The translations under genes were made by a program, and so were the position numbers. The notes below the pieces were generated by a model. The model did no database searches, had not been told where the DNA came from, and saw only the letters and a list, made by a program, of their open reading frames with translations. From Spirochaetia bacterium (GTDB lineage Bacteria > Spirochaetota > Spirochaetia > UBA9216): a stretch of DNA of 64,000 nucleotides. Below, one piece after another: positions 9,517 through 62,508 of this stretch (the stretch's first letter is position 1; each line of letters opens with the position of its first letter). The stretch spans positions 1,568,001 to 1,632,000 of the forward strand of contig CAXXYH010000004.1 of assembly GCA_963677925.2 (NCBI GenBank), written 5' to 3'.

Positions 9517-11686
9517 AAATTTCAGCCGGGCTGTCGGAATGAAAGACAGTCCGGTTTTTACCTGAATTTTTTGCCGCATACATTGCTGCATCAGCCTTTC
9601 TTATAAGTTCTTCCATATTAACTTCATCATCAGGATAAATAGAGGCGCCTATGCTTGTTCCTACATTGTACTTAATATTTTTAAGAATGATGTCCGAGTG
9701 CACTGCTTCAATTATTTTATCAGCAACAGAACGTACATTTTCAACCGTTCCAATATTATAAATGACGGCAATAAATTCATCCCCGCCTATTCTGGCTACA
9801 GTATCCGAGGTTCTAAGGGCATTTTTAATTCTTTGAGATACTGTTTTCAGCAGCTCATCACCGGCATCATGGCCCAGGGTATCATTGACCTGCTTGAATG
9901 AATCAAGATCCATATAAAGTACGGCAAGTTTTGTACTGTCCCGATCTGCCATTTTTATTCCGTTTTTAATAAGCTCTCTTAACAGATGTCTGTTCGGTAA
10001 ATCTGTCAGGGCATCATGATTGGCCATGTGGCTGATTCTTCGGTAGGCAATTTCAAGATTAACCTTTTCATCAGTAACTATCTTGTTCAGCATATTAAGC
10101 TCCGTATGAGCCTTTGAATTATCCAGTGCTACAGCAATGAATGATGCAACCGCACCCAGAAGGTTAAGATTAGCTTCGGTATATGAGTGTTCAAATGTGC
10201 TCTGGACAGTCAGGCATCCGAGTATTTCCCTGCCGTGCAGTATAGGCAGAAATATTGCAGAGTTAATTTCAATATTGAAACGGTTTTTCCAGCCTTTGAT
10301 ATATTTTTCAGTTTCGGCTGTTGTCGAAAAAAGCACCGGTTTTTCGTTTGTAATGCACCAGACAGAGAGGCTTGTTTTGTCATCCATTTTAATAATCAGA
10401 GGCTGCATTCTCTTGCCGTTCTCAATGAAAAATTTCATTGTAAGGTTATTTTCTTTTCTATCCAGCAGCGCGATGCCGAAGGATGTCATCTCGAGAAATT
10501 CCCCCAGGCTTTCATAAGTCCGGTGAAGTATTTCTTCCGGATCAAGTGATGATGTAATTTCCCGGCCGATGCGGTTGATGATCTTGATTTCCTTATTTGA
10601 ACGTTCCATTTCAAGAAATCTCATCCGGTAGGATTCCTTCTCTGTTTCTGTATGCTCCGTCTCATAAAGAATTGAAATCTTTCTCAGTCTGTTTTTAAGC
10701 CCGTCGTTTTTCTGGATCTGTTCGAATTCGTAAAACCTCAGAAAATATTCGCAGGCCTTTTTAAAATCACCCAGGTGCCTGCTGATGTGAGCCCTGCGCT
10801 TCATGCAGCGTCTAAGCAGATCCTGCAGATTCAGTTTTACTGCAATTGATTCAGCATCATCAATAAAATTCAGGGCCTTATCAAAATCCTGTCTGATTAT
10901 CTTAATTTCTCCAAGCCGGTAAAAACATTCAGCCTTTCCGAATTCGTGACCAATATCTGAAAACAGTTTCAGTGCATTTTCAAGTTTCGTTTCTGCATCT
11001 TCGAGTTTGTTGCTGTGTATCTGAACTCTGGCGCTGCCCAGCATAGCTGATGCTGTTAATATCCCGAAGCTGCTTATACTGTCCGAATCAAGAACACTTT
11101 GAAAATATTCTGCAGCAGATTCCATATCATCGGAGTCGATGGCTGATTTACCCATGTTTATAGTAATCTCGGCTTTTAACACAGGGTTTTCAACATAGGC
11201 TGCGACATTCTGAGCCTGGTGAAAGTAGCGGAGGGCTTCTTCTGTATTGTTAATCATTCGATGGATATCGCCTATTGCATTCAGAGTCTGAGCCTGAATA
11301 TTGATATCCTGATGCATTTCGCTCTGTGTCAGTGAAATAAAGTATTGGTTTAGTGAAGATTCGTAATTGCCCTTGGAAAACTCAGCCCGGCCAAGTGCGT
11401 TGCGCGCCGCCATTTCTCCATGCAGACTCCTCCGGTCGGAATCAAGCCTGAAAAGATCAAGAGACTGTTCAAGATGAGGAATTGCCGCATCAGGATTACA
11501 CAAAATCAGGTAACAGGACCCTATATTCAGAAAAGCTTCCGCTCTGCCGTAGCTGTAATCATTTTTTTCAGCAAGATCGGCGTTCCGCTGCGCCTCTGGA
11601 ATATATTTTTCCGGTTCGTTTAGAAGATTTTGATGAATCTCGGCGTTCTGGTCATCAATTTGATGAAACACATCATTCACATTCAT
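9506..11686 (-). CDS. diguanylate cyclase, TPR-GAF-GGDEF
   Basis: N-terminal TPR-like repeats, GAF (ILGCLTVQS), HDALTDLPNR, DLDSFKQVND, RTSD I-site then ARIGGDEF. Confidence 0.92.
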   Translation of the reverse strand: MNVNDVFHQIDDQNAEIHQNLLNEPEKYIPEAQRNADLAEKNDYSYGRAEAFLNIGSCYLILCNPDAAIPHLEQSLDLFRLDSDRRSLHGEMAARNALGRAEFSKGNYESSLNQYFISLTQSEMHQDINIQAQTLNAIGDIHRMINNTEEALRYFHQAQNVAAYVENPVLKAEITINMGKSAIDSDDMESAAEYFQSVLDSDSISSFGILTASAMLGSARVQIHSNKLEDAETKLENALKLFSDIGHEFGKAECFYRLGEIKIIRQDFDKALNFIDDAESIAVKLNLQDLLRRCMKRRAHISRHLGDFKKACEYFLRFYEFEQIQKNDGLKNRLRKISILYETEHTETEKESYRMRFLEMERSNKEIKIINRIGREITSSLDPEEILHRTYESLGEFLEMTSFGIALLDRKENNLTMKFFIENGKRMQPLIIKMDDKTSLSVWCITNEKPVLFSTTAETEKYIKGWKNRFNIEINSAIFLPILHGREILGCLTVQSTFEHSYTEANLNLLGAVASFIAVALDNSKAHTELNMLNKIVTDEKVNLEIAYRRISHMANHDALTDLPNRHLLRELIKNGIKMADRDSTKLAVLYMDLDSFKQVNDTLGHDAGDELLKTVSQRIKNALRTSDTVARIGGDEFIAVIYNIGTVENVRSVADKIIEAVHSDIILKNIKYNVGTSIGASIYPDDEVNMEELIRKADAAMYAAKNSGKNRTVFHSDSPAEISNV

Positions 11687-11751
11687 TGTTTTTTATCCTA
11701 TGATTATAGCAAAAGTATTTTTAATTACCAAGCTGAATATCGGAGAAATTT

Positions 11752-14598: not shown

Positions 14599-14627
14599 TT
14601 ATGATAATTCTGATTCGAAGTTTTTAT

Positions 14628-15365
14628 TCAGTTCATGGCCTTTCCGCATGCAGGACAGGCCGGGTTTTTTGAGAGCTCTATGCTTGTAAACTCCCATTCG
14701 GTTCCATCGAATATCAGCAGCCTGTTTTTCAGGCTGCTTTTTTTTGTGCAGAGATATTTTACTGCTTCTGTAGCCTGGATTGAACCGGTTATTCCGGCGG
14801 TAGAGCCCAGAATGGGTATGGGCTCTTTATTCCTGATGTCTTCAGGGAATATGCACCTCAGACAGGCTGTTTCAGGCGGCATGAGCATTGAAACCTGTCC
14901 TGCAAGCCCCCGGACTCCGCCGTGGAGAAGGGGAACTCTATACTTCATGGAGTAATCGTTTATAACATAACGGGTGGCAATATTGTCCAGGCAGTCTATT
15001 ATCAGATCACAGTTTGCTGCTGCTTCAGCAAGGCTGTCCGAAATATCTGCATTATATGCAATTATATTTATTTCAGGATTTATCCCTGTAAGTCTTTCGG
15101 AAGCCGAATCGGTTTTGGGAACGCCGATACCGGCTGTCCCGTGAAGAAGCTGCCGGTTAAGATTGGAGAGCTCTACCTTGTCATTATCGCATATAACAAT
15201 TGTTCCGACTCCGGCCGCGGCAAGGTACATGGAAACAGGACTTCCAAGCCCTCCTGCTCCGGCTATCATGACACGTGAATTTTTAAGCATCTCCTGATCA
15301 ATTCTAATTCCGTCATCCAGATGAAGCTGTCTTGAATACCGCTTAAGTTCATTTTCACTTAACAT
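14628..15365 (-). CDS. ThiF/MoeB/HesA family adenylyltransferase
   Basis: RYSRQ, GAGGLGS, ELSNLNRQ, CLRC and CPAC Zn motifs; AGGAG before ATG 15365. Confidence 0.92.
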   Translation of the reverse strand: MLSENELKRYSRQLHLDDGIRIDQEMLKNSRVMIAGAGGLGSPVSMYLAAAGVGTIVICDNDKVELSNLNRQLLHGTAGIGVPKTDSASERLTGINPEINIIAYNADISDSLAEAAANCDLIIDCLDNIATRYVINDYSMKYRVPLLHGGVRGLAGQVSMLMPPETACLRCIFPEDIRNKEPIPILGSTAGITGSIQATEAVKYLCTKKSSLKNRLLIFDGTEWEFTSIELSKNPACPACGKAMN

Positions 15366-46146: not shown

Positions 46147-47463
46147 TTACGGCTGTTGCCAGGCAAGCGGCAGATGATCGTTTATCAAAGCGCTGCCGTT
46201 TTCGAACTCGGTATGGAGCGTACTTGTACCTACATTCCAGCCGGAAAGATTCTGATTAAAGAGTTTGGCGTCAAAGAACATCCAACTCATATTGGTAACA
46301 CTGCTGACATTCCATTTTGAGAGATCTGCATTAAATTTATAAGCAGTGTCAAACATTGATTCCATATCTGTAACATTACCAACATTCCATTGTGAGATAT
46401 CTCCATTAAATACATATGCACGGACGAACATGCAATACATGTTTTTGACTTTATCAACACTCCAGCCGGAGATTTCCTGATTGAAAGTAATGGTATTGGC
46501 GAACATCCAGCTCATATCTTCAACATTGCCTACTTCCCAGCCTGAGATGTCCTGGTTGAAGGATTCAGCTGCATAGAACATCCAGCTCATATCTTCAACG
46601 CTGCTGACATCCCAGTCGGATATGTCCTGGTTGAAGGATTTGGCATTGCTGAACATATGATTCATATCTTTAACATTACTCACATCCCAGCCTGAAATAT
46701 CCTGGTTGAAACTTGTAAAATTTAAAAACAAATTATTCATATCAGTTATACCGGAAGTATCTGCCATACTAACGTTTAGATTATTTAAAATCATGGTGTC
46801 AAGTTCGGATCTATCAACGGTAATAAGCAGATTAACATCATACTCGCGGGTGCTGCCATCCTCTGCGGTTATTTTAAATACCACTGTATAAGAAAAATCG
46901 TCGGCGGAAGAATCGGTTTCCTGTTCCACACCGTCTGCAATAACTGAAACTCCTGTAGTTGTATATGTTGGAATAAGTGAGCTTACTATGGTGCTGATAT
47001 CTGCTGAGTATGGAATCCTGAGGGTTATCGCATTACCATCAATTACTCCAATCAAATCCTCACTTAATTTTGGATTCTTTTCACTTAAAAACGAGAACGA
47101 TGTAATCTCTCTGGCAGGATTCAGGGCTGCAGTAACTGTAACGGCATAATCTGAGGTACTGCCGTCTTCGGCTGTTACTCTATACGTTACCGGGGAAGTG
47201 AAATCATTAGCTGTTTCTCCGCTTACCTGTTCAATGCCATTAACCGAGACGCTTATACCGGTTGTTGTAAAGCTTGCAACCAGACTGCTTAAGTCTGTTG
47301 CATATGGTACAGTAACCGCTATTGCTGACCCGGTAATCTCTGCAATTGCCGCGGGGCTGATATCATTAAAACTGAATTCTGTTAAATCTGAAGTGGAGTT
47401 TGAGCATCCTGATATTACGGCTGCTATGAAAAGCGCCGGAAGCAATTGTTTTAGTTTTTTCAT
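46147..47463 (-). CDS. BspA/DUF285 repeat surface lipoprotein with two Ig-like stalk modules
   Basis: Lipobox ISGC; NDFTSPVTYRVTAEDGS and DFSYTVVFKITAEDGS modules; FNQDISxWDVSxVxDMxxMF repeats. Confidence 0.88.
   Translation of the reverse strand: MKKLKQLLPALFIAAVISGCSNSTSDLTEFSFNDISPAAIAEITGSAIAVTVPYATDLSSLVASFTTTGISVSVNGIEQVSGETANDFTSPVTYRVTAEDGSTSDYAVTVTAALNPAREITSFSFLSEKNPKLSEDLIGVIDGNAITLRIPYSADISTIVSSLIPTYTTTGVSVIADGVEQETDSSADDFSYTVVFKITAEDGSTREYDVNLLITVDRSELDTMILNNLNVSMADTSGITDMNNLFLNFTSFNQDISGWDVSNVKDMNHMFSNAKSFNQDISDWDVSSVEDMSWMFYAAESFNQDISGWEVGNVEDMSWMFANTITFNQEISGWSVDKVKNMYCMFVRAYVFNGDISQWNVGNVTDMESMFDTAYKFNADLSKWNVSSVTNMSWMFFDAKLFNQNLSGWNVGTSTLHTEFENGSALINDHLPLAWQQP
46228..46713 (-). 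repeat. about 6.5 tandem 75-bp (25-aa) DUF285 coding repeats
   Basis: TTGAA anchor recurs at 46485, 46560, 46635 and 46710. Confidence 0.85.
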
Positions 47464-47637: not shown

Positions 47638-49152
47638 ATGAAAAAAAAATATGTCGGTGCAGTTGATCAGGGCACTACAAGTACAAGATTTATACTTTTT
47701 AATAAAAAAGGTCTGATAGAACATTCCTATCAGCTTGAACATAGGCAGATATTTCCAAAACCGGGCTGGGTTGAACATGACCCAATTGAAATATGGGAGA
47801 AAACCTGCACGGTTATTACAGAAACACTTAAAAGAAACAGTATCAGTCCTGATGAAATTGATTCCATCGGTATTACAAACCAGCGTGAAACAACGGTGGT
47901 CTGGGACCGCTATACGGGAAAACCTCTTCATAATGCCATTGTCTGGCAGGATACCAGAACCGGCGATATCATTGCACGTGCATCAGGCTCTGAAGGTCCG
48001 GATCGCTACCGTGAAAAGGTAGGCCTGCCTTTGAATACCTACTTTGCCGGGTCAAAAATGCAGTGGCTTTCGGAGAATTCTGAAGAGGTAAAATCGGCAG
48101 TAGAGAAGGGCCGCGCTGTATTTGGAACAATTGATTCATGGGTAGTATGGAACCTGACAGGCGGTGCAGACGGCGGTTCTTTTGTTACAGATGTTACCAA
48201 TGCCAGCAGAACTCTTCTGATGGATCTAAAAACACTGCAGTGGGATTCCGGGATGATGGAAGTTTTTAACGTTAATCCCGATTCTCTTCCCGAAATCCGG
48301 TCTTCCTCAGCTGCTGAACCCTATGGATTTACCAGGACGGATGGTCCTTTCGGTGCTTCCATACCTGTCTGCGGTATACTTGGGGATCAGCAGGCCGCCA
48401 TGTTCGGTCAGGCCTGTTTTAATCAGGGAAACAGCAAGAATACCTACGGAACCGGCTGTTTTATGCTGGCAAATACCGGTGAAGATATCGTTCATTCAAA
48501 ATACGGGCTTTTAACCACTGTCCTGTACAGAATAGGTAAGGAGAATCCCTGTTATGCCCTGGAAGGCTCAGTTGCCGTCGCAGGATCTCTTGTACAGTGG
48601 ATTCGGGATAATCTGGGGCTGATACAGAATTCCCCCGATATCGAGGAGCTTGCACTGAAGGTTGATGATAACGGCGGTGTGTATTTCGTTCCTGCTTTTT
48701 CGGGCTTATTTGCTCCCAGATGGCGTCCCGATGCAAGGGGGCTGATAATCGGCCTGACCGGCTACGCAAACTCATCCCACATAGCACGTGCCGTTCTGGA
48801 ATCCACCGCATTCCAAACACTTGAAATCTTCGATGCCATGGAAAAAGATGCCGGTATTGAGATTGATTCGCTGAAGGTTGACGGCGGTATGACTGCCAAT
48901 AACCTGCTTATGCAGTTTCAGGCTGATCTGCTTGATGTTCCGGTAATCAAACCCGTTGTTTCCGAAACCACAGCCCTTGGCGCCGCCTATGCCGCAGGAC
49001 TTGCTACAGGCTTCTGGGCTGACCGCAGGGAACTTTCTGAACACTGGGTTGAAGACAGACGATGGCTGCCGAAGATGAGCCAGAGTGAAAGGGAGTCGAG
49101 ATTTAAGGGCTGGAACCGCGCAGTGGAAAGAACATATAACTGGGAGACGTAA
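47638..49152 (+). CDS. glpK: glycerol kinase
   Basis: [46 protein letters not shown]. Confidence 0.96.
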
Positions 49153-50644: not shown

Positions 50645-50674
50645 AAAAAAAGACTCCCGGGGGTTGCCCGGGAG
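50645..50674 (-). terminator. intrinsic terminator between cls and transaldolase gene
   Basis: CTCCCGGG/CCCGGGAG stem with T-run on - strand. Confidence 0.75.
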
Positions 50675-50699
50675 CGGAAGGTTTATTATTAGGCCGATA

Positions 50700-51776
50700 T
50701 CATAGATCCGGATTTGGAACCATAAAGTCTCTGATTACTGCCAGGAGATCAGCATAGCCTGCGAGAAAGCCACGCAGTGTCCGGGCTGTTGCTCCGAAGG
50801 TTTCAAATTCTTCATGTGTAAGACCATCCGGTTCATATGCTTTGATAAAATCAGGAAATTTCTTTTTAAGCTCATCAATAATTGCAGGATCAACAGGGTC
50901 ATCCATTCTTGGTTTAACCTCAACATCTGACTGGTTGAACTGTACCTGCCATTTGTATGGAATAGTAAGAACTACGTCACCGCCGATGAATTCACTCCAC
51001 TGAAGGTGGTTTCTGTATGCTGCAGCAAGAAGTCTTGTTCGGAATCCCTTCTCGTTGTAATACTTGTAGGCATTCTTGAAAACGGCAACACCTGCCCAGT
51101 CAAGGACACCGGGAGTAACCGCAATGTTTTCTTTTGCTGCAATTACTTTCAGCCAGTCGTCAATCCGGCCTACCATTATGGTGCAGACAGGAGTCATTTT
51201 AGATACATCCTTGCCTTCGGCTTCCCGTCTCTTAAGTCCTCTTTCAACGGCTTCTGCAACTGCCACAGCCTGCGGACATGAAAAACTTACTGTTGCATTG
51301 ATATTAACACCGGCATATGTTGCTTCTTCAATGGCTTTCACTCCGGCTGCGGTTACAGGCATTTTTACCATCATGTTTTCAGCAAGTGTGTTGAAGCCGA
51401 TGGCCTGATCAGCCATTTTTTTCCAGTCACGATAGTACTGTGCATTGGTCTGTATGCTGATGCGTCCTTTCATGCCGTCATATTTCTTGAAGACAGGCAT
51501 AAGAAGTTCTGCGCCTTTAACAGCCATTTCTTCGTTAAGTTTCCATGCGATATCGATCTCAGTAGCTTCAGGCATTTCCTTAACAAGCTCTTTGATCCTG
51601 TCTTTCCAAAGATGCATCTCCTTTTTCAGCACATTTCCAACAATAACGGGGTTTGTTGTAGCTCCTGTTGCACCGTTTTCGATTGAATATTTAAGCTCTT
51701 CGATAGAACATGAATCATTCCATACATCGGTTGCTGTTGTTTCAACAGTCTCGTGAAGCGGACTTTTGTATCCCAT
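50700..51776 (-). CDS. transaldolase-family protein, non-canonical active site
   Basis: WNDS, TTNP, VKMP (Schiff-base Lys), INAT, VGRIDD; Gln at the TalB Glu96 position. Confidence 0.88.
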   Translation of the reverse strand: MGYKSPLHETVETTATDVWNDSCSIEELKYSIENGATGATTNPVIVGNVLKKEMHLWKDRIKELVKEMPEATEIDIAWKLNEEMAVKGAELLMPVFKKYDGMKGRISIQTNAQYYRDWKKMADQAIGFNTLAENMMVKMPVTAAGVKAIEEATYAGVNINATVSFSCPQAVAVAEAVERGLKRREAEGKDVSKMTPVCTIMVGRIDDWLKVIAAKENIAVTPGVLDWAGVAVFKNAYKYYNEKGFRTRLLAAAYRNHLQWSEFIGGDVVLTIPYKWQVQFNQSDVEVKPRMDDPVDPAIIDELKKKFPDFIKAYEPDGLTHEEFETFGATARTLRGFLAGYADLLAVIRDFMVPNPDL

Positions 51777-51815: not shown

Positions 51816-51856
51816 AGTTTAGAACTTTATTTTTGATTTGTCAATTGTCAGACAAT
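51816..51856 (-). promoter_or_regulatory. promoter of transaldolase gene with adjacent palindrome
   Basis: TTGACA-N17-TAAACT on - strand; ATTGTCAGACAAT (51844-51856) abuts the -35. Confidence 0.5.
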
Positions 51857-51923: not shown

Positions 51924-51937
51924 TGCAAACGTTTGTA
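51924..51937. promoter_or_regulatory. LacI-type operator
   Basis: TGCAAACGTTTGTA, central AACGTT. Confidence 0.6.
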
Positions 51938-52079: not shown

Positions 52080-52131
52080 TTGACAAAGAAACAATCTAGA
52101 ATGATAATATCAGTAAATGACAACGTTTGCA
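52080..52131 (+). promoter_or_regulatory. iol operon promoter plus LacI-type operator
   Basis: TTGACA-N17-GATAAT, then TGACAACGTTTGCA (52118-52131). Confidence 0.7.
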
Positions 52132-52168
52132 AAGAAAGCTAAAACAATTCATTAAGGAGGATTATTTA

Positions 52169-53110
52169 ATGAAGAAAGGTTTGTTAGTACTTGTTGTATT
52201 ACTGGCGATTGCAGGAACAGTTTTTGCCGGTGGTCAGCAGGATGCAAAGAGCGGTTTTGAAGTAGGTTATGTTTGTAACAATTTTAACGACACATTCCAG
52301 ACCTATGTTATGGATGCTGCGGAAGCTTATTTCAATGAAAACGCAGACATCACAATTACTCTTCAGGATGCACAGGAAGATGTTATCAAGCAGCAGGACC
52401 TTGTTAACATTTTTATCGCGCAGGGTGTAGATGCTCTCATAGTAGTACCGGTAGATACCAGTGCAATGGGACCAATCGTAACTGCAGCAAATGAAGCTGG
52501 AATACCTCTCTGCTTCGTAAACAGAAACCCCTACGGCCAGGATGACCCACCCGCAAATGTTTACTATGTAGGCTCACAGGAAATCATTGCAGGTCAGCAG
52601 CAGATGAATGCAATGGGTGAACTTCTCGGCGGAAAGGGCGGAGTTGCTATCCTTATGGGTAAACTTGACAACGAAGGCGCTCTTAAGAGAACCGAAGGTA
52701 ACGAACAGGTTATCAGTGAAAAATATCCCAACATTAAAATTCTTGCAAAAGAAACCGGAAACTGGCAGAGAGACCAGGGAATGGTACTTACAGAGAACTG
52801 GCTGACTGCATACGGCTCAGGTCTTAACGGTATCCTTGCCAACAATGATGAAATGGCTCTCGGTGCTGTGGAAGCTCTTAAGGCTGCAGGAAGACAGGAT
52901 GTTTTTGTAATGGGTGTTGATGCTATACCTGATGCAAAGGTCGCAGTAGGAAGCGGTGATCTTGCAGCAACAGTTCTTCAGGATGCTGTTGGTCAGGGTA
53001 GAGGAAGTGCCATGGTTATCCATGAAGCACTTAAAGGTTCTACACCGGACAAGATCACATGGATACCGTTCGTTCTTATTACAAAAGAAAATCTTGCTGA
53101 TTTTCAGTAG
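52169..53110 (+). CDS. sugar (inositol) ABC substrate-binding protein
   Basis: AGGAGG RBS; RbsB-like fold motifs (VNR, YVGSQE, ANNDEMALGA, GVDA). Confidence 0.9.
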   Translation: MKKGLLVLVVLLAIAGTVFAGGQQDAKSGFEVGYVCNNFNDTFQTYVMDAAEAYFNENADITITLQDAQEDVIKQQDLVNIFIAQGVDALIVVPVDTSAMGPIVTAANEAGIPLCFVNRNPYGQDDPPANVYYVGSQEIIAGQQQMNAMGELLGGKGGVAILMGKLDNEGALKRTEGNEQVISEKYPNIKILAKETGNWQRDQGMVLTENWLTAYGSGLNGILANNDEMALGAVEALKAAGRQDVFVMGVDAIPDAKVAVGSGDLAATVLQDAVGQGRGSAMVIHEALKGSTPDKITWIPFVLITKENLADFQ

Positions 53111-53125
53111 AAAGAACTGTTAGAC

Positions 53126-53159
53126 AAAAAGGGAAAAGAGCAGTCTTTTCCCTTTTTTT
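53126..53159 (+). terminator. intra-operon hairpin after SBP gene
   Basis: AAAAAGGGAAAAGA-GCAG-TCTTTTCCCTTTTT. Confidence 0.75.
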
Positions 53160-53179
53160 AAACTGAAATGGAGTTTTAG

Positions 53180-54700
53180 ATGGACGAAGATAAGATTCTT
53201 CTGAAAATGTCGAATATTGTAAAAACTTTTCCGGGTGTACAGGCCCTGAAAGGTGTAGAGCTGATCGTTAGAAAAGGTGAGATTCATGCCCTCATGGGAG
53301 AAAACGGGGCTGGAAAATCAACCCTCGTAAAATGTTTAGCCGGTATTCACAGTCAGACTTCCGGAGAGATCCTTTTTGACGGAAAAATCCGGGAAAATTA
53401 TAACACGGCTCAGGCACTACGCATGGGTATCTCCATGATTCACCAGGAATTAAGCCCTGTACTTCACAGGACTATCATGGAGAACATATGGCTTGGCAGA
53501 GAGCCTCTTAATAAGTTCGGGCTGGTTGATCACAATAAAATGTATGAGATGACCAAAGATGTCCTTAAGCAGATTGATCTTAAAGAAGACCCCCGGACAC
53601 TGATGGTTAATCTGACTGTAGCGAAAATGCAGATGATTGAAATAGCCAAGGCTGTTTCCTATGATTCTAAACTTATCATTATGGATGAGCCCACATCGGC
53701 GCTTACAGATAAGGAAGTAAATCATCTTTTTGAGATCATGAGAAAGTTAAAGGCTCAGGGTAAGAGCATCATATATATTTCACACAAGCTTGATGAAATT
53801 TACGAGATAACGGATCAGGTAACAGTATACAGGGACGGTGATTATATCGGTTCCGAAAAAACCACTGAGCTGTCTGTAGATCGGATGATAAATATGATGG
53901 TCGGACGTAATGTCGATGAAATGTTTCCGAAAATTCCCTGCGAGATCGGTGATGTGAAGATGGAAGTAAAAAACCTTACACATCCGACATCTTTCAGTGA
54001 TGTTTCATTCACCGTTAGAAAGGGAGAGATCCTTGGTTTTGCCGGGCTGGTAGGCGCCGGACGGACAGAGGTAATTGAAACCATTTTCGGAATCAGAACA
54101 AGACAGTCAGGTGAAATCCTGATTGACGGTAAACCGGTCAAGATTGATTCTCCAAGGGATGCCATAAAGCTAAAATTAGCGCTTCTGACTGAAGACAGGC
54201 GTCTTTCGGGTATCTTTCCAATGCTTACAGTAAGACTGAATATGGCAATAGCCACCATTCCCAAATTTCTTAACCGGGCCGGTCTGCTGAAAACTAAAAA
54301 GCTCAAGGACACCTGTGACGAGTATGTAACAAAAATACAGGTTAAAACACCAAGTCTGATGCAGCGGATTGAAAACCTCAGCGGAGGAAACCAGCAGAAA
54401 GTACTGGTAGCTCGCTGGCTCATGACTAATCCGGAAATTCTCTTTCTGGACGAGCCTACAAGGGGAATTGATGTAGGTACCAAGGCTGAAATACACAAGC
54501 TGATAACCAAACTTGCAGGTGAGGGTAAATCAATAATAATGGTTTCCTCAGAGCTGCCGGAAGTCATGGGGATGAGCGACAGAATAGTAGTAATGCATGA
54601 GGGCCGGGTAACAGGAATTGTTGATAACGATGAATCACTTACACAGGAAGTATTGATGTCATACGCGACCAATACTCATTCCGGCAACAAGACGGCATAA
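53180..54700 (+). CDS. sugar ABC transporter ATPase (RbsA/MglA-like)
   Basis: GENGAGKST, MDEPT, GLVGAGRTE, LSGGNQQK. Confidence 0.95.
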   Translation: MDEDKILLKMSNIVKTFPGVQALKGVELIVRKGEIHALMGENGAGKSTLVKCLAGIHSQTSGEILFDGKIRENYNTAQALRMGISMIHQELSPVLHRTIMENIWLGREPLNKFGLVDHNKMYEMTKDVLKQIDLKEDPRTLMVNLTVAKMQMIEIAKAVSYDSKLIIMDEPTSALTDKEVNHLFEIMRKLKAQGKSIIYISHKLDEIYEITDQVTVYRDGDYIGSEKTTELSVDRMINMMVGRNVDEMFPKIPCEIGDVKMEVKNLTHPTSFSDVSFTVRKGEILGFAGLVGAGRTEVIETIFGIRTRQSGEILIDGKPVKIDSPRDAIKLKLALLTEDRRLSGIFPMLTVRLNMAIATIPKFLNRAGLLKTKKLKDTCDEYVTKIQVKTPSLMQRIENLSGGNQQKVLVARWLMTNPEILFLDEPTRGIDVGTKAEIHKLITKLAGEGKSIIMVSSELPEVMGMSDRIVVMHEGRVTGIVDNDESLTQEVLMSYATNTHSGNKTA

Positions 54701-54711
54701 GGAGGAAAAAA

Positions 54712-55713
54712 ATGAGCGATGTTAAATCGAGTTTTAATAATGCTGCTTTAAAGCAGACGCTTCAAAAATACGGAATTGTATTCGTACTTATTTTAATGAT
54801 TATCGGGTTGAGTATAGCCTCTCCGGCATTCCTGAGTCCGCATAATATTTTTAATGTTCTTACCCAGAGCGCAATCTTTGGAATTATGGCCCTGGGACTT
54901 ACATTTGTAATTATTGCAAAGGGAATTGACCTTTCAGTAGGTTCAGTTCTTGCTTTTTCAGGTGTTGTAGCCGCAAGTCTGGCTCAGGCTGCTACTGCAA
55001 CTACCAAATACTTTCCCAACCTTCCGGAACTTCCGGTTTTTGTTCCTATTCTGGCCGCACTTGCAATAGGCGCTCTCTGCGGCGGTATAAGCGGTGCGCT
55101 CATAGCGAAGACCAGGATCCCGGCATTTATTGCCACGCTCGGTATGATGACTGTTGCCAGAGGTTTTGCTCTTATCTACTCAGACGGTAAACCTGTAAGT
55201 ACACTCATTCCCGGAATGACTGCCCTTGGCGGAAAGCTGTTCGGCTTCCTCCCGATTCCGGTAATTATCTATGTGATAATGATAATCATCAGTTCAATCC
55301 TGCTGAACTACACGAGATTCGGAAAGAATACATATGCCATAGGCGGTAATATTACAGCAGCCGAGATTTCCGGTGTTAATGTCAGCAAGAACCTCATCGG
55401 AATATATGCATACAGCGGTCTTCTGGCAGGTCTTGCAGCTGTAGTTTTTGCCGGACGTGTAGGGTCTGTTCATCCCGGTGCTGCAACCGGTTATGAGCTT
55501 ACAGCAATCGCCGCAACAACAATCGGCGGAACCAGCCATTCAGGCGGTATCGGAACAATATGGGGAGCCTTTGTAGGTGCTCTGGTTCTGGCTGTTATGA
55601 GAAACGGTCTTACTCTTCTTGGTGTTGATGCCTACTGGCAGCAGGTTACTGAGGGTGCAATAATTGTAGTTGCAGTTATTATCGATATGCGTAAAAACGC
55701 TAAAAAGAAATAA
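54712..55713 (+). CDS. sugar ABC transporter permease
   Basis: [31 protein letters not shown]. Confidence 0.93.
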
Positions 55714-55724: not shown

Positions 55725-56738
55725 ATGAATACAGTAAGAATTGGGTCTGTAGGCCTGGGAAGGCTCGGTCTTGCCCATGCTGAGAATATTACAAACAGGA
55801 TTCAGGGAGCGCAGCTTACAGCGCTCTGTGATCTTGATGAAAAGAAACTCAATGAAACAGCTGACAGACTGGGTGTTAAAAACAGGTTCACAGCATTTGA
55901 TGACATGATTAAATCGGATGAAATTGATGCTGTTGTTCTTGTTTCTCCCTCAGCAATGCATACCGGGCAGATTGAAGCCGCGCTTGCTGCAGGAAAACAT
56001 GTGTTCTCTGAGAAACCGCTCGGAGTTACTGTTGATGAATGCCTGAAAGCCGAGAAGGCTGTAGAAAAATATTCCGACAAGGTTTTCATGCTGGGCTTTA
56101 TGCGGCGTTTTGATGAATCATACAAATATGCACATGACAAGGTTGCTGCTGGAGAAATCGGTACTCCGGTTCTGTTCAGATCCTACAGTCAGGACCCTGA
56201 GAAGTTTATCGATGGAGCAATAGCATTCGCCCCGCACAGCGGAGGTCAGTTTCTTGATATGGCTGTACATGATATAGACCTTGCCAGGTGGTTCCTCGAT
56301 GATGAGCCTGAAACTGTCTATGCAATAGGAGGCTGTTACGCTCATCCGGAATTTGCACAGTATCAGGATGGTGATAATGTTTCGGCTTTGATGAAGTTCA
56401 AAAAAGGCGCTATGGCCTTCCTGTTCGCAGGAAGAACTGCACCCCACGGTTATAATGTAGAAACCGAAATAATCGGTACGAAGGGTACTCTCCGAATCGC
56501 ATCGGTCCCCCAGAAAAACCTTGTTGAAATACTGGACCCATATGGTGTAAGAAGAGAATGCAGTGAAAACTTTCTGGAGAGGTTTGAATCGAGTTACGTC
56601 AATGAAATCCAGGAATTTGTAGACTGCATAATAAAAAATAAAAAACCCGGAGTTACCGTTTATGACGGAACGAGAGTTTCAGAGATAGCATACAAATGCA
56701 AAGAGGCTTTTGAGAAGGGCGAAATGTTGAGGTTTTAA
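55725..56738 (+). CDS. iolG: inositol dehydrogenase (Gfo/Idh/MocA)
   Basis: GLGRLG, EKP, GFMRRFD, DMAVHD, FLERF. Confidence 0.8.
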   Translation: MNTVRIGSVGLGRLGLAHAENITNRIQGAQLTALCDLDEKKLNETADRLGVKNRFTAFDDMIKSDEIDAVVLVSPSAMHTGQIEAALAAGKHVFSEKPLGVTVDECLKAEKAVEKYSDKVFMLGFMRRFDESYKYAHDKVAAGEIGTPVLFRSYSQDPEKFIDGAIAFAPHSGGQFLDMAVHDIDLARWFLDDEPETVYAIGGCYAHPEFAQYQDGDNVSALMKFKKGAMAFLFAGRTAPHGYNVETEIIGTKGTLRIASVPQKNLVEILDPYGVRRECSENFLERFESSYVNEIQEFVDCIIKNKKPGVTVYDGTRVSEIAYKCKEAFEKGEMLRF

Positions 56739-57764
56739 GTGAAGCGATCCCAGGTTACGATCAAAGATATAGCTGAAATTGCAGGAGTAAGTTTTTCCAC
56801 TGTTTCCCGATGTCTGAACGACAGTTCCGTTGTTTCGCCGGAGACCAAGAAGAAGGTCTGCGATATTGCGGATAAAATGGGCTTTGAGTTCAATTCTTCA
56901 GCGCGGGGGCTGATTACTTCGACTGTTGGAACTGTCGGAATTATTCTTCCGGAACAGTTTACCGAGATTTCAGTTAACGTATACCACGGGATGCTTATGA
57001 ACAGCCTGCGGACAAGCCTTGAAAAGGCTGATGTGGATTTGATAGTTACTTATCAGAAGAACCATTTTACAGGCAAAAACAATATTATGAGGCTGGTAAC
57101 GCGGCGGAAAATAGACGGACTGATAATGCTGGTTGAGAATATTGAACAGGAAACCCTGGACTTTCTTGAAGCAAGATCTGTTCCCTTTGTCTGCACTCAT
57201 TATCCGCCTGCTGATAACATCAAAAATCAGGATGTTATCTATACGGATCACTATGCAGGCGGCAAACTGGTGGCTGAACATCTTATAGGAAAGGGCCGGA
57301 GCCGGTTTATGATTCTTGCTGTTGAGGATGTTCACCTGGAGTTTCAGCTTCGTGAAAAAGGCTTCACAAAGGTAGTTAAGGAAGCCGGGTTTGAAGTCGC
57401 AAGGTTTGAAACAAAGTCGGTATTCAATGCTGCTTATGAGACAACTAGGTCGATGATTGATGAGGTCAGAAAGTACGATGCAGTTTTCGCTCTTAATGAT
57501 CTCATGGCACTTGGAACCATAAAAGCGCTGCTTGAAGCGGGTATCCGGGTTCCTGAAGATGTTGCGGTAGTCGGATACGACGACAGTGAGTTCAGCCGCT
57601 ACAGTGTTCCTATGCTGACTTCAGTGCATCAGCCCAAGGAAGAACTTGCCATGTTTGCGTGTCAGCGGCTTTTTCATCAGATGGAAAAGAAAAAAGAGAA
57701 GCAGGAGTTTCTGAAGAAATTGATGAGTATTCAGCCTGTTCTTATAGAAAGAGATTCCACCTGA
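56739..57764 (+). CDS. LacI family regulator
   Basis: TIKDIAEIAGVSFSTVSR; NDLMALG, VVGYDD, LTSVHQP. Confidence 0.92.
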   Translation: MKRSQVTIKDIAEIAGVSFSTVSRCLNDSSVVSPETKKKVCDIADKMGFEFNSSARGLITSTVGTVGIILPEQFTEISVNVYHGMLMNSLRTSLEKADVDLIVTYQKNHFTGKNNIMRLVTRRKIDGLIMLVENIEQETLDFLEARSVPFVCTHYPPADNIKNQDVIYTDHYAGGKLVAEHLIGKGRSRFMILAVEDVHLEFQLREKGFTKVVKEAGFEVARFETKSVFNAAYETTRSMIDEVRKYDAVFALNDLMALGTIKALLEAGIRVPEDVAVVGYDDSEFSRYSVPMLTSVHQPKEELAMFACQRLFHQMEKKKEKQEFLKKLMSIQPVLIERDST

Positions 57765-57798: not shown

Positions 57799-58689
57799 AT
57801 GGATAAAAACAAAATTAAGCTGGGTATGGCCCCTATAGGCTGGACTAATGATGATCTTCCCGATCTGGGAAGTGAAAACTCTTTTCAGCAGTGTGTAAGT
57901 GAAATGGCTCTCGCCGGATTTACCGGTTCTGAGGTCGGTAATAAGTATCCCTCCGATGCTGCTGAGCTGAAACCCTATCTTGATATCAGGGGAATAAAGA
58001 TCTGCAATCAGTGGTTCAGTTCATTTCTCTGTTCACAGCCCTATGCCGAAGTTGAGAAGGCTTTCCGGGCGCAGCTTTCATTTCTGAAGGCTCTTGGAGC
58101 TGATGTTATCGGTCCTTCAGAGCAGACCAGATCGAGTCAGGGCCAGGCTGTTCCTGTATTTTCAGGAAAGGCTGTATTTGACACTGAAGAGTTCAAAAAG
58201 CTCACTGAGGGAATGAACAAGCTCGGAAAAATAGCAAAAGATGAAGGACTCAGGCTAGCCTTTCATCATCACATGGGTACAGGTGTACAGACTATAGAAG
58301 AAACTGAACGTTTTCTTAACGATACCGACCCGAATCTTGTCTATCTGCTTTTTGATTCAGGACATTTTGCCTATGCAGGTCAGGATCCGGTTGCCGCCCT
58401 GAAGAAGTTTATAAGCAGGGTCGGGCATGTACATCTTAAAGACATCAGAACTGATGTATATAAAGAAGTAACTGCCGCAGATTCATCCTTTCTTGATGCA
58501 GTACGGAAGGGTGTTTTTACAGTTCCGGGTGATGGAAGCATAGATTTTGATTCAATTTTCAGTCTGCTTGATGAAGCCGGATACGAGGGCTGGATGGTTG
58601 TTGAGGCTGAACAGGATCCTGCAAAAGCCAATCCATTTGAATATGCTTTGAAAGCAAGAAAATATATTCAGGAACACGCAGGGCTTTAA
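57799..58689 (+). CDS. iolE: myo-inosose-2 dehydratase
   Basis: APIGWTNDD, HHHMGT, DSGH, VHLKD, VEAEQDP. Confidence 0.95.
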   Translation: MDKNKIKLGMAPIGWTNDDLPDLGSENSFQQCVSEMALAGFTGSEVGNKYPSDAAELKPYLDIRGIKICNQWFSSFLCSQPYAEVEKAFRAQLSFLKALGADVIGPSEQTRSSQGQAVPVFSGKAVFDTEEFKKLTEGMNKLGKIAKDEGLRLAFHHHMGTGVQTIEETERFLNDTDPNLVYLLFDSGHFAYAGQDPVAALKKFISRVGHVHLKDIRTDVYKEVTAADSSFLDAVRKGVFTVPGDGSIDFDSIFSLLDEAGYEGWMVVEAEQDPAKANPFEYALKARKYIQEHAGL

Positions 58690-58709: not shown

Positions 58710-59723
58710 ATGAATAATAAAATTAAACTTGGAATTATCGGCGCAGGCCGTATAGCAAAGGTTCATGCCGAGAGTATTACATCGGCCATTGCAGCAGCTG
58801 AGATTAAAACTGTTGCCGATCCGTATATAAACGAAGAAACTGAAAAATGGTTCAGGGAAAAAGGCATACCCAATGTTACAAAGAATGCTGCAGATATCTT
58901 TAATGACAGTGAAATCGATGCTGTACTGATCTGTTCTTCAACAGATACACATGCGGAATTTACCAGAAAGGCGGCAGAATGCGGTAAGCATATCTTCTGT
59001 GAAAAGCCTCTTGATCTTGATATCGAACGAATCAAGGAAACCCTGAAAATTGTTGAAGCCGCAGGCGTTAAGTTCCAGATTGGTTTTAACAGACGCTTCG
59101 ATCACAACTTCAAGGCTGTAAGGGATGCAGTTGAAGCAGGTTCCGTGGGTGAACCTCATATTGTGAGAATAACCTCAAGAGACCCGGCGCCGCCTGACCC
59201 CAGATACATTGCTGTTTCCGGCGGTATATTCATGGATATGACTATTCATGATTTTGATATGGTCAGGTACTTAAGCGGCAGCGAAGTTGATGAGATTTAT
59301 GTTCAGGGTGCAGTTCTGGTAGATCCTGAAATTGGAAAGGCAGGCGATATTGATACCGCAGTGATTTCGATGAAACTTCAGAACGGAGCAATTGCAGTAA
59401 TCGACAACTCAAGAAAGGCTGCCTATGGATATGATCAGAGAGCAGAGGTTTTCGGAAGCAAGGGTGCTGTTGAAACCTCAAATGATGCTCCAAGCACTAT
59501 GGTTATGAGCAACGAAGCAGGTGTAACTGCTGAAAAACCACTGTACTTCTTTCTTGAAAGATACATGGAGTCATTCTCACGTGAAGTAAGAATGTTTATT
59601 GATTCAGTAAAGAACGGAACCGAAACACCGGTTGGGGCTCTTGATGCCCTGCGTCCTGTTCAGATAGCAAAGGCTGCACGTGAATCCCTTGATACCGGCA
59701 AGCCTGTAAAAGTTAACTACTAG
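58710..59723 (+). CDS. iolG: myo-inositol 2-dehydrogenase
   Basis: GAGRI, CEKP, GFNRRFD, SRDP, DMTIHDFD, YGYDQRAE, FFLERY. Confidence 0.92.
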   Translation: MNNKIKLGIIGAGRIAKVHAESITSAIAAAEIKTVADPYINEETEKWFREKGIPNVTKNAADIFNDSEIDAVLICSSTDTHAEFTRKAAECGKHIFCEKPLDLDIERIKETLKIVEAAGVKFQIGFNRRFDHNFKAVRDAVEAGSVGEPHIVRITSRDPAPPDPRYIAVSGGIFMDMTIHDFDMVRYLSGSEVDEIYVQGAVLVDPEIGKAGDIDTAVISMKLQNGAIAVIDNSRKAAYGYDQRAEVFGSKGAVETSNDAPSTMVMSNEAGVTAEKPLYFFLERYMESFSREVRMFIDSVKNGTETPVGALDALRPVQIAKAARESLDTGKPVKVNY

Positions 59724-59744: not shown

Positions 59745-60557
59745 ATGATTGCAAGAAAAGAAAAACCTTTTACGAAAGGCTATAATTCAATAACCGAGCA
59801 GCATGGGAAACATCCTGAAATGCTGCTTGATTTCGGAATACTGATGCTTGAGAGCGGTGAGGTTCATGAAGATTCTCAGAATAAGGAAAGAGCCTGGCTG
59901 CTTATTAAGGGTGAACTTTCCTTTGAATGGGAAGGTAAAACCGCCTCCGGTAAACGGATTTCATGCTTTGATGAAAATCCGGTAGTTCTTCATGTTCCGG
60001 CAGGTGTTGCTGTTAAAATTACCGCTGCGGCAGACTGTGAGATTGCAGTTGAAGCCTGCGATAATTCAAACAGTTTTAATGCCAGGTTTTACGCTCAGGA
60101 AGATATCAGGTGCGATATTTTCGGTGCCGGTACTCTTAACGAGGCTTCAACCAGGACTGTACGGACTGTATTTGACGGTGAAATTGAGCCGGCTTCAAAT
60201 ATGGTAATGGGCGAGGTTATAAATCATCCGGGAAAGTGGTCGAGCTTTCCTCCCCATGATCATCCGCATCCTGAAATTTATCATTACCGCTTTTTCCCGA
60301 AGCAGGGCTTCGGTGTTTCACTTCTTGAAGAGGATGCCTATGTGGTCAAGGACGGAGATTCAAGTCTGATTTTTCCTGACAAGACACATTCCCAGGTTGC
60401 TTCAGCCGGTTACGCAATGTACTACATCTGGATGATTGCCCACCTTCCCGGCGATAAATGGCTTCCCACAACAAGGTTCTTCAGAAAGGACCATGAATGG
60501 CTTAAGGAAAAGGATGCCAAAATCTGGCCTGAACTTAAGTATTCGGAAGCTGAATAG
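59745..60557 (+). CDS. iolB: 5-deoxy-glucuronate isomerase
   Basis: [25 protein letters not shown]. Confidence 0.9.
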
Positions 60558-60573: not shown

Positions 60574-62508
60574 ATGAAAACAGTAAGATTAACAGTAGCC
60601 CAGGCACTTGTCCGTTTCCTCGATAACCAGTGGATTGAGTTCGATGGAAAGCAGAATAAGATGTTCAGAGGGGTTTTTACAATTTTCGGTCACGGAAACG
60701 TAGTCGGTCTTGGACAGGCGCTGGAAGAGGATGCCGGCGAACTCATCGTTCACCAGGGAAAGAATGAGCAGGGTATGGGACATGCCGCCATGGGATTTGC
60801 CAAGCAGATGCTCAGGAAGCAGATCTATGTCTGTACCTCATCTGTCGGACCCGGAGCAGCCAATATGGTTACAGCAGCCGCCAATGCCACGGCAAACAGA
60901 ATTCCTGTACTTTTTCTGCCGGGCGATACCTATGCTACAAGACAGCCGGATCCTGTTCTGCAGCAGGTTGAGAGATTCAGCGACTATACGGTAACCGTAA
61001 ACGATTCATTCAAGGCTGTAAGCCAGTACTGGGACAGGGTAAACCGTCCTGAACAGCTTATGACCGCTATGATAAATGCGGTGAGAGTGCTTACCGATCC
61101 TGCTGACACCGGCGCAGTAACTGTTGCGCTTCCGCAGGATGTTGAGGGAGAGGCATATGATTACCCTGAATCATTTTTTGATAAGCGTGTACATAGAATA
61201 GAAAGAAGACCGCCGACTGATGCTATGATAGCCGATGCGGTTAAGGCGGTTAAGGCTGCCAAAAAGCCGATGCTGATTTGCGGAGGGGGTGTACGCTACT
61301 CTGAGGCTGCCGAAGAATTCAGGAAATTTGCCGAGGAATTCAATATTCCCTTCGGTGAAACCCAGGCAGGCAAGTCCGCAATTGTATGGGATCATGAACT
61401 GAATCTCGGCGGTGTCGGAACAACCGGCAACCTCGCTGCAAATCTTATTGCTCCGGAAGCCGATCTTGTAATCGGAGTGGGTACAAGATATACCGACTTC
61501 ACAACAGCATCTAAATGGCTCTATCAGAATGAAGATGTCAAGTTTGTTAATATAAACGTAGCGCCTTTTGACAGCTACAAGATGGACGCTGTCAGGGTAA
61601 CTGCCGATGCGGGTGCAGCATTATCAAAGCTGACTGATGCACTTAAGGCTGATGGTTATAAGAGCAGCTGGAAGAACGAGATTGCAGACGCCCGGGCCAA
61701 ATGGGCAGCTGAACTGCAGAGGCTCTATGAAATTGATTTTACAGGTGAAGGCTTTGTTCCCGAGGTTGATGGTCAGCGTGATGAGATTCTTCCTGAATTC
61801 TACAGTCAGTTCGGTGCTGCACTCACTCAGACCAAGGTTTTAGGATTGCTTGATGCCAACCTTGCCGATGATTCAATTGTTGTAGGTGCTGCAGGGTCAC
61901 TCCCTGGAGATCTCCAGAGGGTCTGGCGGGCTAAAAGGCCTGAAACATACCATATGGAATACGGTTTTTCATGTATGGGTTATGAAATAAATGCTGCACT
62001 TGGTGTTAAGCTGGCCTGTCCTGAACAGGAAGTATATGCACTGGTCGGAGACGGTTCCTACATGATGCTTCATTCCGAACTGGTTACCGCCGTTCAGGAA
62101 GGCCGGAAGATAAATGTAATTCTTCTGGATAATGCCTCCTTCGGCTGTATCAATAATCTTCAGATGGAGCACGGTCAGGGCAGCTTCGGTACTGAAACCA
62201 GGCATAGAAATCCTGAAACCGGTAAACTTGACGGACCTTTTATCAATATCGATTATGCAATGAGCGCGGCAGCCTACGGCTGTAAAACCTATACTGCCAA
62301 AACAGAGGACGAACTTGTTGCCGCATTGGAAGATGCGAAGAAGCAGACTGTATCAACTCTAATCGACATCAAGGTTCTTCCCAAAACCATGACTCACGGT
62401 TATGAGGCTTTCTGGAGGGTCGGCAGTGCTGAAGTTGCTAAGAATCCCGAGATCGTCAACCTGAACAGGAATATGAAGGAAGAGCTTAAGAAAGCCAGAA
62501 AGTATTAA
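60574..62508 (+). CDS. iolD: 3D-(3,5/4)-trihydroxycyclohexane-1,2-dione acylhydrolase (TPP)
   Basis: [42 protein letters not shown]; ATG 60574. Confidence 0.96.

Follow-up and report, generated by a model that had tools for sequence, protein, structure and literature searches.

The 64,000-nucleotide stretch analysed here (hereafter the window; contig CAXXYH010000004.1 of assembly GCA_963677925.2, positions 1,568,001 to 1,632,000, from a Spirochaetia bacterium) carries, at 50700..51776 on the minus strand, an open reading frame with a PF00923 match that encodes a variant transaldolase-family protein of 358 aa, for which we use our own name TalQ. TalQ probably cleaves 2-deoxy-5-keto-D-gluconate (DKG), an intermediate of myo-inositol catabolism, to malonate semialdehyde. 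To the fuller statement, i.e. that TalQ also transfers the dihydroxyacetone unit of DKG to glyceraldehyde-3-phosphate and thereby replaces both the kinase IolC and the aldolase IolJ, we give an even chance. Directly observed are the family membership, a fixed active-site signature and the gene contexts, together with a genome that lacks IolC and DUF2090.

TalQ is a member of the transaldolase/fructose-6-phosphate aldolase (FSA) superfamily by profile, TIM-barrel fold and the presence of a catalytic Asp on strand 1 and, on strand 4, the Schiff-base Lys. The Pfam profile PF00923 (TAL_FSA) matches residues 18-286 with 148.6 bits (cut-off 27), and the AlphaFold model (45 sequences as input; pLDDT 96.9, pTM 0.93) was matched by Foldseek to the long-type transaldolases of N. 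gonorrhoeae and C. glutamicum with TM values of 0.80-0.82 and E values of about 1e-17, the structural matches being 7oey, 3r5e and 3clm at 20-22 % identity. TalQ nevertheless stays below the cut-off of every NCBIfam transaldolase or FSA model, i.e. NF002881 as the top match (116.9 against 367 bits), TIGR00876 (86.1 against 233.75), TIGR00874 (64.5 against 396.2) and the FSA model TIGR00875 (43.9 against 245.95). A search of 1.84 billion representative proteins returned 345 proteins at E <= 1e-30, and public sources name the relatives merely 'transaldolase' or 'transaldolase family protein', i.e. the family is large and carries only a generic label.

For the active site, TalB and FsaA of Escherichia coli were taken from NC_000913.3 and aligned by MAFFT with TalQ and 14 relatives; TalB numbering was confirmed on the fetched sequence and the TalQ codon positions were verified. 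Conservation was scored over 77 sequences, i.e. TalQ, its paralog, 72 proteins from related loci and three from other Spirochaetota. The first-pass annotation, which addressed 50950-51500, had paired TalB RISTEVD with RISIQTN, SPFVGR with TIMVGR and GASFR with AAAYR, and all three pairings hold. RISIQTN (residues 105-111, 51444-51464; all motifs and codons of TalQ are on the minus strand) puts Gln109 (51450..51452) in the place of TalB Glu96, where FsaA also has Gln. TIMVGR (residues 199-204, 51165-51182) puts Met201 (51174..51176) opposite TalB Phe178 and FsaA Tyr131, the latter sitting in APYVNR, and pairs Thr199 with Ser176 and Arg204 with Arg181, while AAAYR (residues 251-255, 51012..51026) pairs Ala253 with Ser226 and Arg255 with Arg228. 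HMMER against PDB entry 3r5e gave the same pairing for the RISIQTN and TIMVGR motifs. Gln and Met are found in 77/77 sequences, and the third position is Ala in 75 and Gly in 2. As had likewise been claimed, Asp21 (TalB Asp17; 51714..51716), the TTNP motif (residues 40-43; TalB 33-36) and the Schiff-base Lys138 (TalB Lys132; 51363..51365) are retained, Asp21 and TTNP lying just beyond the interval addressed before, and Asn160 and Thr162 correspond to TalB Asn154 and Thr156. The equivalents of Asp17, Thr33, Asn35, Lys132, Thr156, Arg181 and Arg228 are each present in all 77 sequences. The Gln/Met/Ala signature, fixed across the TalQ family, is therefore beyond chance.

The aligned residues of TalB and FSA have known catalytic roles, which are backed by the PDB titles of the TalB mutants D17A, N35A, E96A, T156A, S176A, F178Y and E96Q/F178Y. 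Sautner et al. 2015, as cited in PMC7029132, supports the same roles. According to PMC3962226, the phosphate site of TalB consists of two Arg and one Ser (Arg181, Ser226 and Arg228), Ser176 is linked to the preference for dihydroxyacetone donors, and the single change F178Y yields dihydroxyacetone aldolase activity. Compared with these enzymes, TalQ lacks the defining residues of both: the acid-base Glu is Gln109, the aromatic Phe178 is Met201, which is still non-protic and hydrophobic, and neither Tyr131 nor the short form of about 220 aa of FSA is found. The earlier claim that the site is neither Tal nor Fsa thus stands for the catalytic pair of positions, but not for position 96 taken singly, which is in the FSA state. 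Judged from the lack of both Glu and Tyr, the acid-base mechanism may differ from that of Tal and FSA; judged from the Ser-to-Ala change with both Arg kept, which is as the first-pass annotation had it, the anion pocket may suit a carboxylate, and the change is compatible with a smaller anion nearer the scissile bond. A catalytic role of the Tyr in AAAYR is improbable because this position is not fixed (Tyr in 53, Phe in 22 of the 77 sequences).

In overall build, TalQ shares the Pfam family and the TIM barrel with TalB and the long 'mycobacterial-type' transaldolases (1onr, 3r5e, 3clm), and resembles the long type in its length and in a helical insert after strand 5. It differs from these enzymes by the three replacements, by an identity of only 20-24 %, and by a context of inositol catabolism instead of the pentose phosphate pathway. 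FsaA has the same Gln, Schiff-base Lys and Asp, in contrast to its Tyr131, its length, and a Lys where TalQ keeps the Arg of TalB position 228. Among more distant representatives, the Gln is constant, position 178 varies (Leu, Val) and Arg181 is lost in some. Distant subfamilies represented by the proteins P0134, P0187 and P0228 (30-39 % identity) keep the Gln, have Leu in the place of Phe178 and carry GM, GF or GL for the GR at Arg181; their substrates may be neutral.

The gene context points towards inositol. TalQ is divergent from an operon of a sugar ATP-binding cassette (ABC) transporter and iol genes, all on the plus strand. After the transporter follow a first copy of the inositol 2-dehydrogenase IolG (55725..56738; TIGR04380, 376.7 bits, cut-off 355), a LacI-family regulator (56739..57764; NCBIfam RbsR/LacI models, under the equivalog cut-offs), the myo-inosose-2 dehydratase IolE (57799..58689; TIGR04379, 409.4 bits, cut-off 290), a second IolG (58710..59723; TIGR04380, 472.6 bits), a divergent IolB-like 5-deoxy-glucuronate isomerase of the KduI/IolB family (59745..60557) and the trihydroxycyclohexane-1,2-dione hydrolase IolD (60574..62508; TIGR04377, 964.3 bits, cut-off 715). 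No kinase or aldolase gene follows this operon in the window. The genome as a whole (5.04 Mb, 99.63 % complete) has no IolC above the cut-off, the top match reaching 127.8 against 300 bits, and a profile search found no DUF2090.

Two matches to a LacI-type palindromic operator motif, TGCAAACGTTTGTA (51924..51937, no strand assigned) and TGACAACGTTTGCA (52118..52131, no strand assigned, shortly after the promoter-like site that precedes the transporter/iol operon), both lie in the 350-bp spacer between TalQ and the iol operon and are the only ones in the window. Since the pattern was read off these two sites, the independent test is given by sites elsewhere. There are four exact matches genome-wide, three of them in iol spacers, the third being upstream, in the LacI/IolB spacer of a second IolB-IolD operon (locus L113, 7890-7903). 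The fourth (C3:1247880) lies among GGDEF/EAL genes and was set aside as seemingly unrelated. The second iol cluster (L113 = G000:C4:1044000-1063999, G000 being the window's own genome) consists of a LacI regulator, GFO-family dehydrogenases, IolB (8088-8912), IolD (8899-10851), an ABC transporter and an IolG-like gene, and is without IolC, IolJ and TalQ.

The association with iol genes recurs beyond this genome. We compared 80 related loci, with one genome per species scanned, from Spirochaetota, Chloroflexota, Bacillota, Acidobacteriota, Omnitrophota, Actinomycetota and other phyla, by tblastn with the window proteins in a range of 10 kb around TalQ. IolB was found in 26/80 loci, IolD in 24, IolE in 26 and IolG-like genes in 30; IolB and/or IolD occur in 34 (counted by hand from the tblastn table). 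Queries with the IolC, IolJ-like and IolC-DUF2090 proteins of other Spirochaetota returned no IolJ-like gene in any of the 80 loci and an IolC-like gene in one (L061). Immediate neighbours were counted in 74 loci after de novo clustering and naming by Pfam and NCBIfam. The top named neighbour of TalQ is IolB (15/74 loci; in 14 it is encoded on the strand of TalQ and no more than 300 bp away), followed by IolD and the (methyl)malonate semialdehyde dehydrogenase MMSDH with seven loci each. A quick maximum-likelihood tree shows members with iol context throughout the TalQ family and in six phyla. Among the carriers of a TalQ-iol cluster are the cultivable Anoxynatronum buryatiense and A. sibiricum (L015, L019), where IolC lies at a distance.

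The neighbours also suit the proposed product. An aldehyde-oxidising enzyme, i.e. MMSDH, an aldehyde:ferredoxin oxidoreductase or a SauS-like acylating dehydrogenase, stands at most two genes from TalQ in 18/74 loci; by tblastn, MMSDH occurs in 10, the oxidoreductase in 11 and the acylating aldehyde dehydrogenase in 4 of the 80 loci, with a carboxyltransferase after the latter in two of the four (L078 and L060). Genome G326 has a cluster IolB-IolD-TalQ-MMSDH (MMSDH 493 bits, cut-off 448.5) and neither IolC nor IolJ on the contig. In G272, a genome without IolC, IolD-IolE-IolG are followed by IolB-TalQ beside MMSDH (537 bits). These two clusters place TalQ between the enzymes that make DKG and the one that consumes malonate semialdehyde.

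The distribution of TalQ, IolC and IolD was compared over several sets of genomes. IolC is above the cut-off in 10 and missing from 23 of the 33 genomes that have TalQ near iol genes. Among 301 Spirochaetota (TalQ orthologs at E <= 1e-100), IolD occurs in 14 and TalQ in 8; 4/8 TalQ-positive genomes have IolD, against 10 of the other 293. These ten IolD-positive, TalQ-negative genomes have IolC above the cut-off in seven cases, borderline in one and not at all in two, and in the seven it mostly adjoins IolD, twice in the form of a fusion of IolC-DUF2090 size. Of 301 Chloroflexota, 57 have IolD, one of which is unpublished and was excluded later; the remaining 56 have TalQ in 9, IolC above the cut-off in 16 (plus one borderline) and both in none, an outcome with a hypergeometric chance of about 0.04 by hand arithmetic, uncorrected for relatedness. 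TalQ is within about 11 kb of IolD in 5/9 of these Chloroflexota. Beside IolD stands either IolC or, in G026 and G533, a directly adjacent TalQ. The linkage that one would expect of a 'DKG transaldolase', which is no defined family as yet, i.e. IolB/IolD and malonate semialdehyde oxidation nearby with IolC/IolJ missing, is therefore found, with the exceptions of G318, L061 and the ten genomes with IolC.

From these observations we infer the substrate, the products and a transfer rather than a hydrolytic release. TalQ would be a class I (Schiff-base) enzyme acting at the last C-C cleavage of myo-inositol catabolism, after IolG, IolE, IolD and the IolB-like isomerase next door have converted inositol to DKG. 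DKG has a free CH2OH-CO-CHOH end in the D-threo configuration that is acted on by IolJ, a fructose-bisphosphate-aldolase homologue, and by transaldolases, and its retro-aldol cleavage at the C3-C4 bond yields malonate semialdehyde; this chemistry, taken from the known structures, would fit a cleavage by TalQ. Seen from its keto end, DKG resembles fructose-6-phosphate, the CHOH-CH2-OPO3 of the latter being replaced by CH2-COO-. An imine would form between Lys138 and the C5 keto group, breakage of the C3-C4 bond would release malonate semialdehyde, and the bound dihydroxyacetone unit would be joined to glyceraldehyde-3-phosphate to give fructose-6-phosphate. IolC and IolJ would be dispensable in this route, and phosphate would enter later by phosphofructokinase, including the pyrophosphate (PPi)-dependent form present in this genome. 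The conservation of Lys, Asp, Thr and Asn speaks for a Schiff-base mechanism of the ordinary kind. Transfer to glyceraldehyde-3-phosphate is favoured over release of dihydroxyacetone because the Met at the Phe/Tyr position, like the Phe of transferases, offers no proton. As a stand-in for Glu96, our guess would be Asp21 with a water molecule, or the carboxylate of the substrate itself. Taken together, the neighbourhoods, the missing IolC and IolJ, the operators and the aldehyde-oxidising neighbours support the core of the earlier view, namely that TalQ departs from the usual transaldolases of the pentose phosphate pathway and probably acts on DKG.

Several observations weigh against a TalQ that replaces IolC and IolJ. 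Both IolB and IolD are absent within 10 kb in 46/80 TalQ loci and 4/8 TalQ-positive Spirochaetota lack IolD; therefore, many members work away from iol clusters or use a different substrate. Both TalQ and IolC are present in 10/33 genomes, and in L061 an IolC lies between IolB and IolD, beside TalQ, without IolJ within 10 kb. In G318 an IolJ-like gene, IolC (342.6 bits), IolB, TalQ and MMSDH are contiguous in a single operon, so TalQ is able to coexist with the full canonical set. Moreover, the spirochaete G283 (99 % complete) has IolG-IolD-IolB in a row (L114 = G283:C1:2512000-2531999) but no IolC, TalQ or any PF00923 gene, and 30/56 IolD-positive Chloroflexota lack both IolC and a TalQ-like gene. 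Since IolC is commonly missing without TalQ, other solutions must exist. The counts for the 33 genomes and for the Chloroflexota come without reported completeness of the metagenome-assembled genomes, and related, i.e. non-independent, genomes are among those counted. The IolB-like protein of the window stays below its NCBIfam cut-off (TIGR04378, 102.8 against 205 bits), its product thus being inferred, and a reversed-pattern control of the operator motif also gave four matches genome-wide, so that only the placement of the sites counts.

An alternative that we consider unlikely, though the likeliest of the rivals, is that TalQ is a DKG lyase, which in the manner of FSA would release free dihydroxyacetone along with malonate semialdehyde, to be followed by a kinase. 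The evidence from context for DKG applies equally to this mode, and the Gln in the place of Glu96 is the state of FsaA and thus speaks for the lyase and against the transferase. In addition, the attempt to rule out the lyase by a missing dihydroxyacetone kinase failed, as the genome contains a Dak1-type kinase frame of 588 aa (417.8 bits). This gene, however, is about 430 kb from TalQ, and no dihydroxyacetone kinase was recognised among the 15 named recurrent neighbour families. A glycerol kinase gene (GlpK, 47638-49152) lies two genes from TalQ, but does so in just 4/80 loci, all from close relatives, and was rejected as a pathway partner. The Tyr131 that serves FSA as acid-base residue is Met throughout the family, whereas in TalB aldolase activity was created by F178Y alone (PMC3962226).

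Less probable is a housekeeping role in the pentose phosphate pathway, in which TalQ would be a classical transaldolase (EC 2.2.1.2; sedoheptulose-7-phosphate + glyceraldehyde-3-phosphate = erythrose-4-phosphate + fructose-6-phosphate) that tolerates its variant active site. The genome has a transketolase (838 bits) but no canonical transaldolase, a PF00923 search returning only TalQ and a paralog of 342 aa with the same Gln and Met; the public names, the two conserved phosphate-site Arg and the many loci without nearby IolB or IolD would also agree with such a role. It is at odds, however, with the scores below every NCBIfam transaldolase cut-off, with the absence of the acid-base Glu in the whole family and with the recurrence of IolB/IolD linkage across phyla. 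G318 and G326 hold a separate short Tal/FSA-type gene besides the TalQ of their iol clusters, and G283 shows that relatives live without any transaldolase. A PPi-phosphofructokinase can bypass transaldolase via sedoheptulose-1,7-bisphosphate, as described for clostridia (PMC7029132). Since both transketolase and PPi-phosphofructokinase (868.6 bits) are present here, the pentose phosphate pathway of this organism could run via the same bypass.

It is also improbable, a shade more so, that TalQ replaces IolJ only, i.e. that IolC or some other kinase first forms DKG-6-phosphate, which TalQ then splits into malonate semialdehyde and dihydroxyacetone phosphate. The genomes in which TalQ and IolC coexist, the IolC beside TalQ in L061 and the contiguous IolC-IolB-TalQ of G318 would be explained in this way. 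But IolC is missing from the other 23 of these 33 genomes, from 9/9 TalQ-positive, IolD-positive Chloroflexota and from the nearly complete genome studied here, and G318 has its own IolJ-like gene as well. Furthermore, the donors known for Tal/FSA enzymes have an unsubstituted hydroxyl at C1, and Thr199 pairs with the donor-site Ser176.

The least probable alternative, that TalQ acts on another keto sugar acid such as 5-keto-D-gluconate or D-fructuronate and is linked to iol genes by shared regulation or a side reaction, draws on the surroundings of the paralog, on short-chain dehydrogenase/reductase (SDR) and GntR genes as recurrent neighbours of TalQ (12 and 7 loci, respectively) and on the Spirochaetota that have TalQ without IolD, but conflicts with IolB being the tightest partner of the window's ortholog group, with downstream enzymes of the malonate-semialdehyde type, and with a paralog that is only 37 % identical to TalQ and sits on a very long branch of the tree.

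The paralog itself (L115:10760-11788, minus strand; L115 = G000:C4:264000-283999, outside the window) adjoins a gluconate-5-dehydrogenase-like SDR (308.6 bits, cut-off 369), a GntR regulator and a major facilitator superfamily (MFS) transporter, with a tartronate semialdehyde reductase (474.2 bits, cut-off 397), a CdaR regulator and a GhrB-like reductase farther away. This neighbourhood suggests that the paralog may form tartronate semialdehyde by cleaving 5-keto-D-gluconate or D-fructuronate.

The iol pathway is known to end with IolC/IolJ or with IolC-DUF2090, DUF2090 being the alternative DKG-6-phosphate aldolase of Price et al. (PMC9007349). As proposed, TalQ would take the place of IolC plus IolJ, after IolB and before malonate semialdehyde oxidation, and break the same C3-C4 bond (PMC9007349, PMC13311982). 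It is homologous neither to IolJ, a class II metal aldolase, nor to the LacD-like DUF2090, and in contrast to the route proposed for TalQ both of these need a prior ATP-dependent phosphorylation; they are absent from the genome studied here and from nearly all TalQ loci. The closest functional analogue would be the sulfofructose transaldolase (SF-TAL), which plays the same role in sulfoglycolysis and bypasses the kinase and aldolase of the Embden-Meyerhof-Parnas-like variant (PMC8873060). In sequence the two are remote, BmSF-TAL (8bc3) matching TalQ with 28.5 bits (E 9.5e-6) over residues 105-174 only. The proposed logic is alike, i.e. an unphosphorylated anionic fructose analogue is cleaved, its C3 unit enters glycolysis and an acid aldehyde is released; SF-TAL, however, is of the short type (226 aa against 358), and its anion is a sulfonate, whereas that of TalQ would be a carboxylate, one carbon nearer the scissile bond.

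Considering all of this, it is tempting to speculate, although this is less likely than not, that TalQ founds a family of keto-sugar-acid transaldolases acting on DKG in iol clusters and on 5-keto-gluconate or fructuronate in the case of the paralog, without the Glu/Tyr acid-base residues and perhaps helped by the carboxylate of the substrate. The back-ends of iol pathways would then be interchangeable and mirror those of sulfoglycolysis, i.e. kinase plus aldolase (IolC/IolJ), transaldolase (TalQ) and possibly transketolase. If coupled to PPi-phosphofructokinase, the transaldolase route would spend no ATP on activation, which could explain its spread among anaerobes.

The transketolase variant is hinted at by the Chloroflexota genome G620, which has neither IolC nor TalQ. 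There, a split transketolase (two open reading frames) heads an IolG-IolB-IolD-IolG-IolE operon (L124 = G620:C1:1644000-1663999, about 7046-14834, minus strand), which would parallel sulfo-TK. As a general answer the split transketolase was rejected, for among the 30 IolD-positive genomes with neither IolC nor TalQ it adjoins IolD only in G620, its distance from IolD being 8 kb in G340 and 20 kb in G600.

According to PMC9007349 and PMC13311982, many inositol degraders are without IolJ, or without both IolC and IolJ, and the Dysosmobacter paper still seeks a missing IolJ among class II aldolases (PMC13311982). TalQ, if it acts as proposed, would fill part of this recognised gap and supply a reaction that is absent from pathway tools. 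A 'transaldolase' family widespread in Spirochaetota, Chloroflexota, Bacillota, Acidobacteriota and other phyla would have to be re-annotated, and a natural transaldolase scaffold without both known acid-base residues that accepts an unphosphorylated carboxylate donor would be of interest for biocatalysis. A full-text search, which covered sources other than subscription journals, found no literature linking a transaldolase to DKG, iolB/iolD, malonate or tartronate semialdehyde, or 5-ketogluconate, so a TalQ route in inositol breakdown would probably be undescribed.

As for the fate of malonate semialdehyde, no canonical malonate semialdehyde dehydrogenase exceeds the cut-off in this genome (top match 323.5 against 448.5 bits). 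The genome does encode a 54 % ortholog of the SauS-like acylating aldehyde dehydrogenase found behind TalQ in other genomes. It adjoins a class-III aminotransferase in locus L122 (G000:C3:350000-367999), where some 3 kb separate it from a carboxyltransferase/biotin-carrier/OAD-beta set on the other strand, a uracil/xanthine-type permease lying between them. L122 is a plausible route from malonate semialdehyde via malonyl-CoA to acetyl-CoA; it looks like a pathway that starts from beta-alanine or malonate semialdehyde, leads to malonyl-CoA and includes a Na+-pumping decarboxylase. A further OAD-beta gene, with a Pfam score identical to that in L122, is found in L117 (G000:C3:1240000-1255999) beside open reading frames of 158 and 516 aa, which resemble a biotin carrier and a carboxyltransferase by size alone.

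Within the iol locus, the transporter spans 52127..55713 and consists of a binding protein (52127-53110), which resembles MglB/RbsB below the NCBIfam cut-offs, an ATPase (53180-54700) and a permease (54712-55713), the latter two assigned through Pfam matches of the proteins of relatives rather than of the window's own. TalQ is preceded by a promoter-like site (TTGACA-17-TAAACT, 51816..51844, minus strand; 10/12 positions) and followed, just 3' of its stop codon, by a terminator-like hairpin (50653..50675, minus strand; 9-pair stem with 7 G-C pairs, then a T run), which as matches to consensus suggest a single-gene transcription unit. The divergent ABC/iol operon has its own promoter-like site (TTGACA-17-GATAAT, 52080..52108, plus strand; 11/12 positions). 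With respect to the IolB-like isomerase, a 79 %-identical relative matches PF04962 with 175.4 bits. The isomerases that accompany TalQ score below 205 bits with TIGR04378, those at L109:6487-7344 and L112:4377-5171 reaching 166.5 and 120.8, while the IolB of the transketolase-type cluster in G620 reaches 373.3; the former may represent a distinct IolB subtype.

A different setting is seen in L021 (2883-11074) and its relatives L023, L025 and L051, all from Chloroflexota, where TalQ is preceded by genes for an ABC transporter, for a protein whose C-terminal domain is of the L-fucose-isomerase type, and for an aldehyde:ferredoxin oxidoreductase. The neighbourhood of TalQ is free of iol genes in this group, whose substrate may be another sugar. 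Finally, the window encodes at 46147-47463 (minus strand) a predicted lipoprotein of 438 aa, the C-terminal half of which is built from many units in tandem, each about 25 residues long and bearing the motif FNQDISxWDVSxVxxM.

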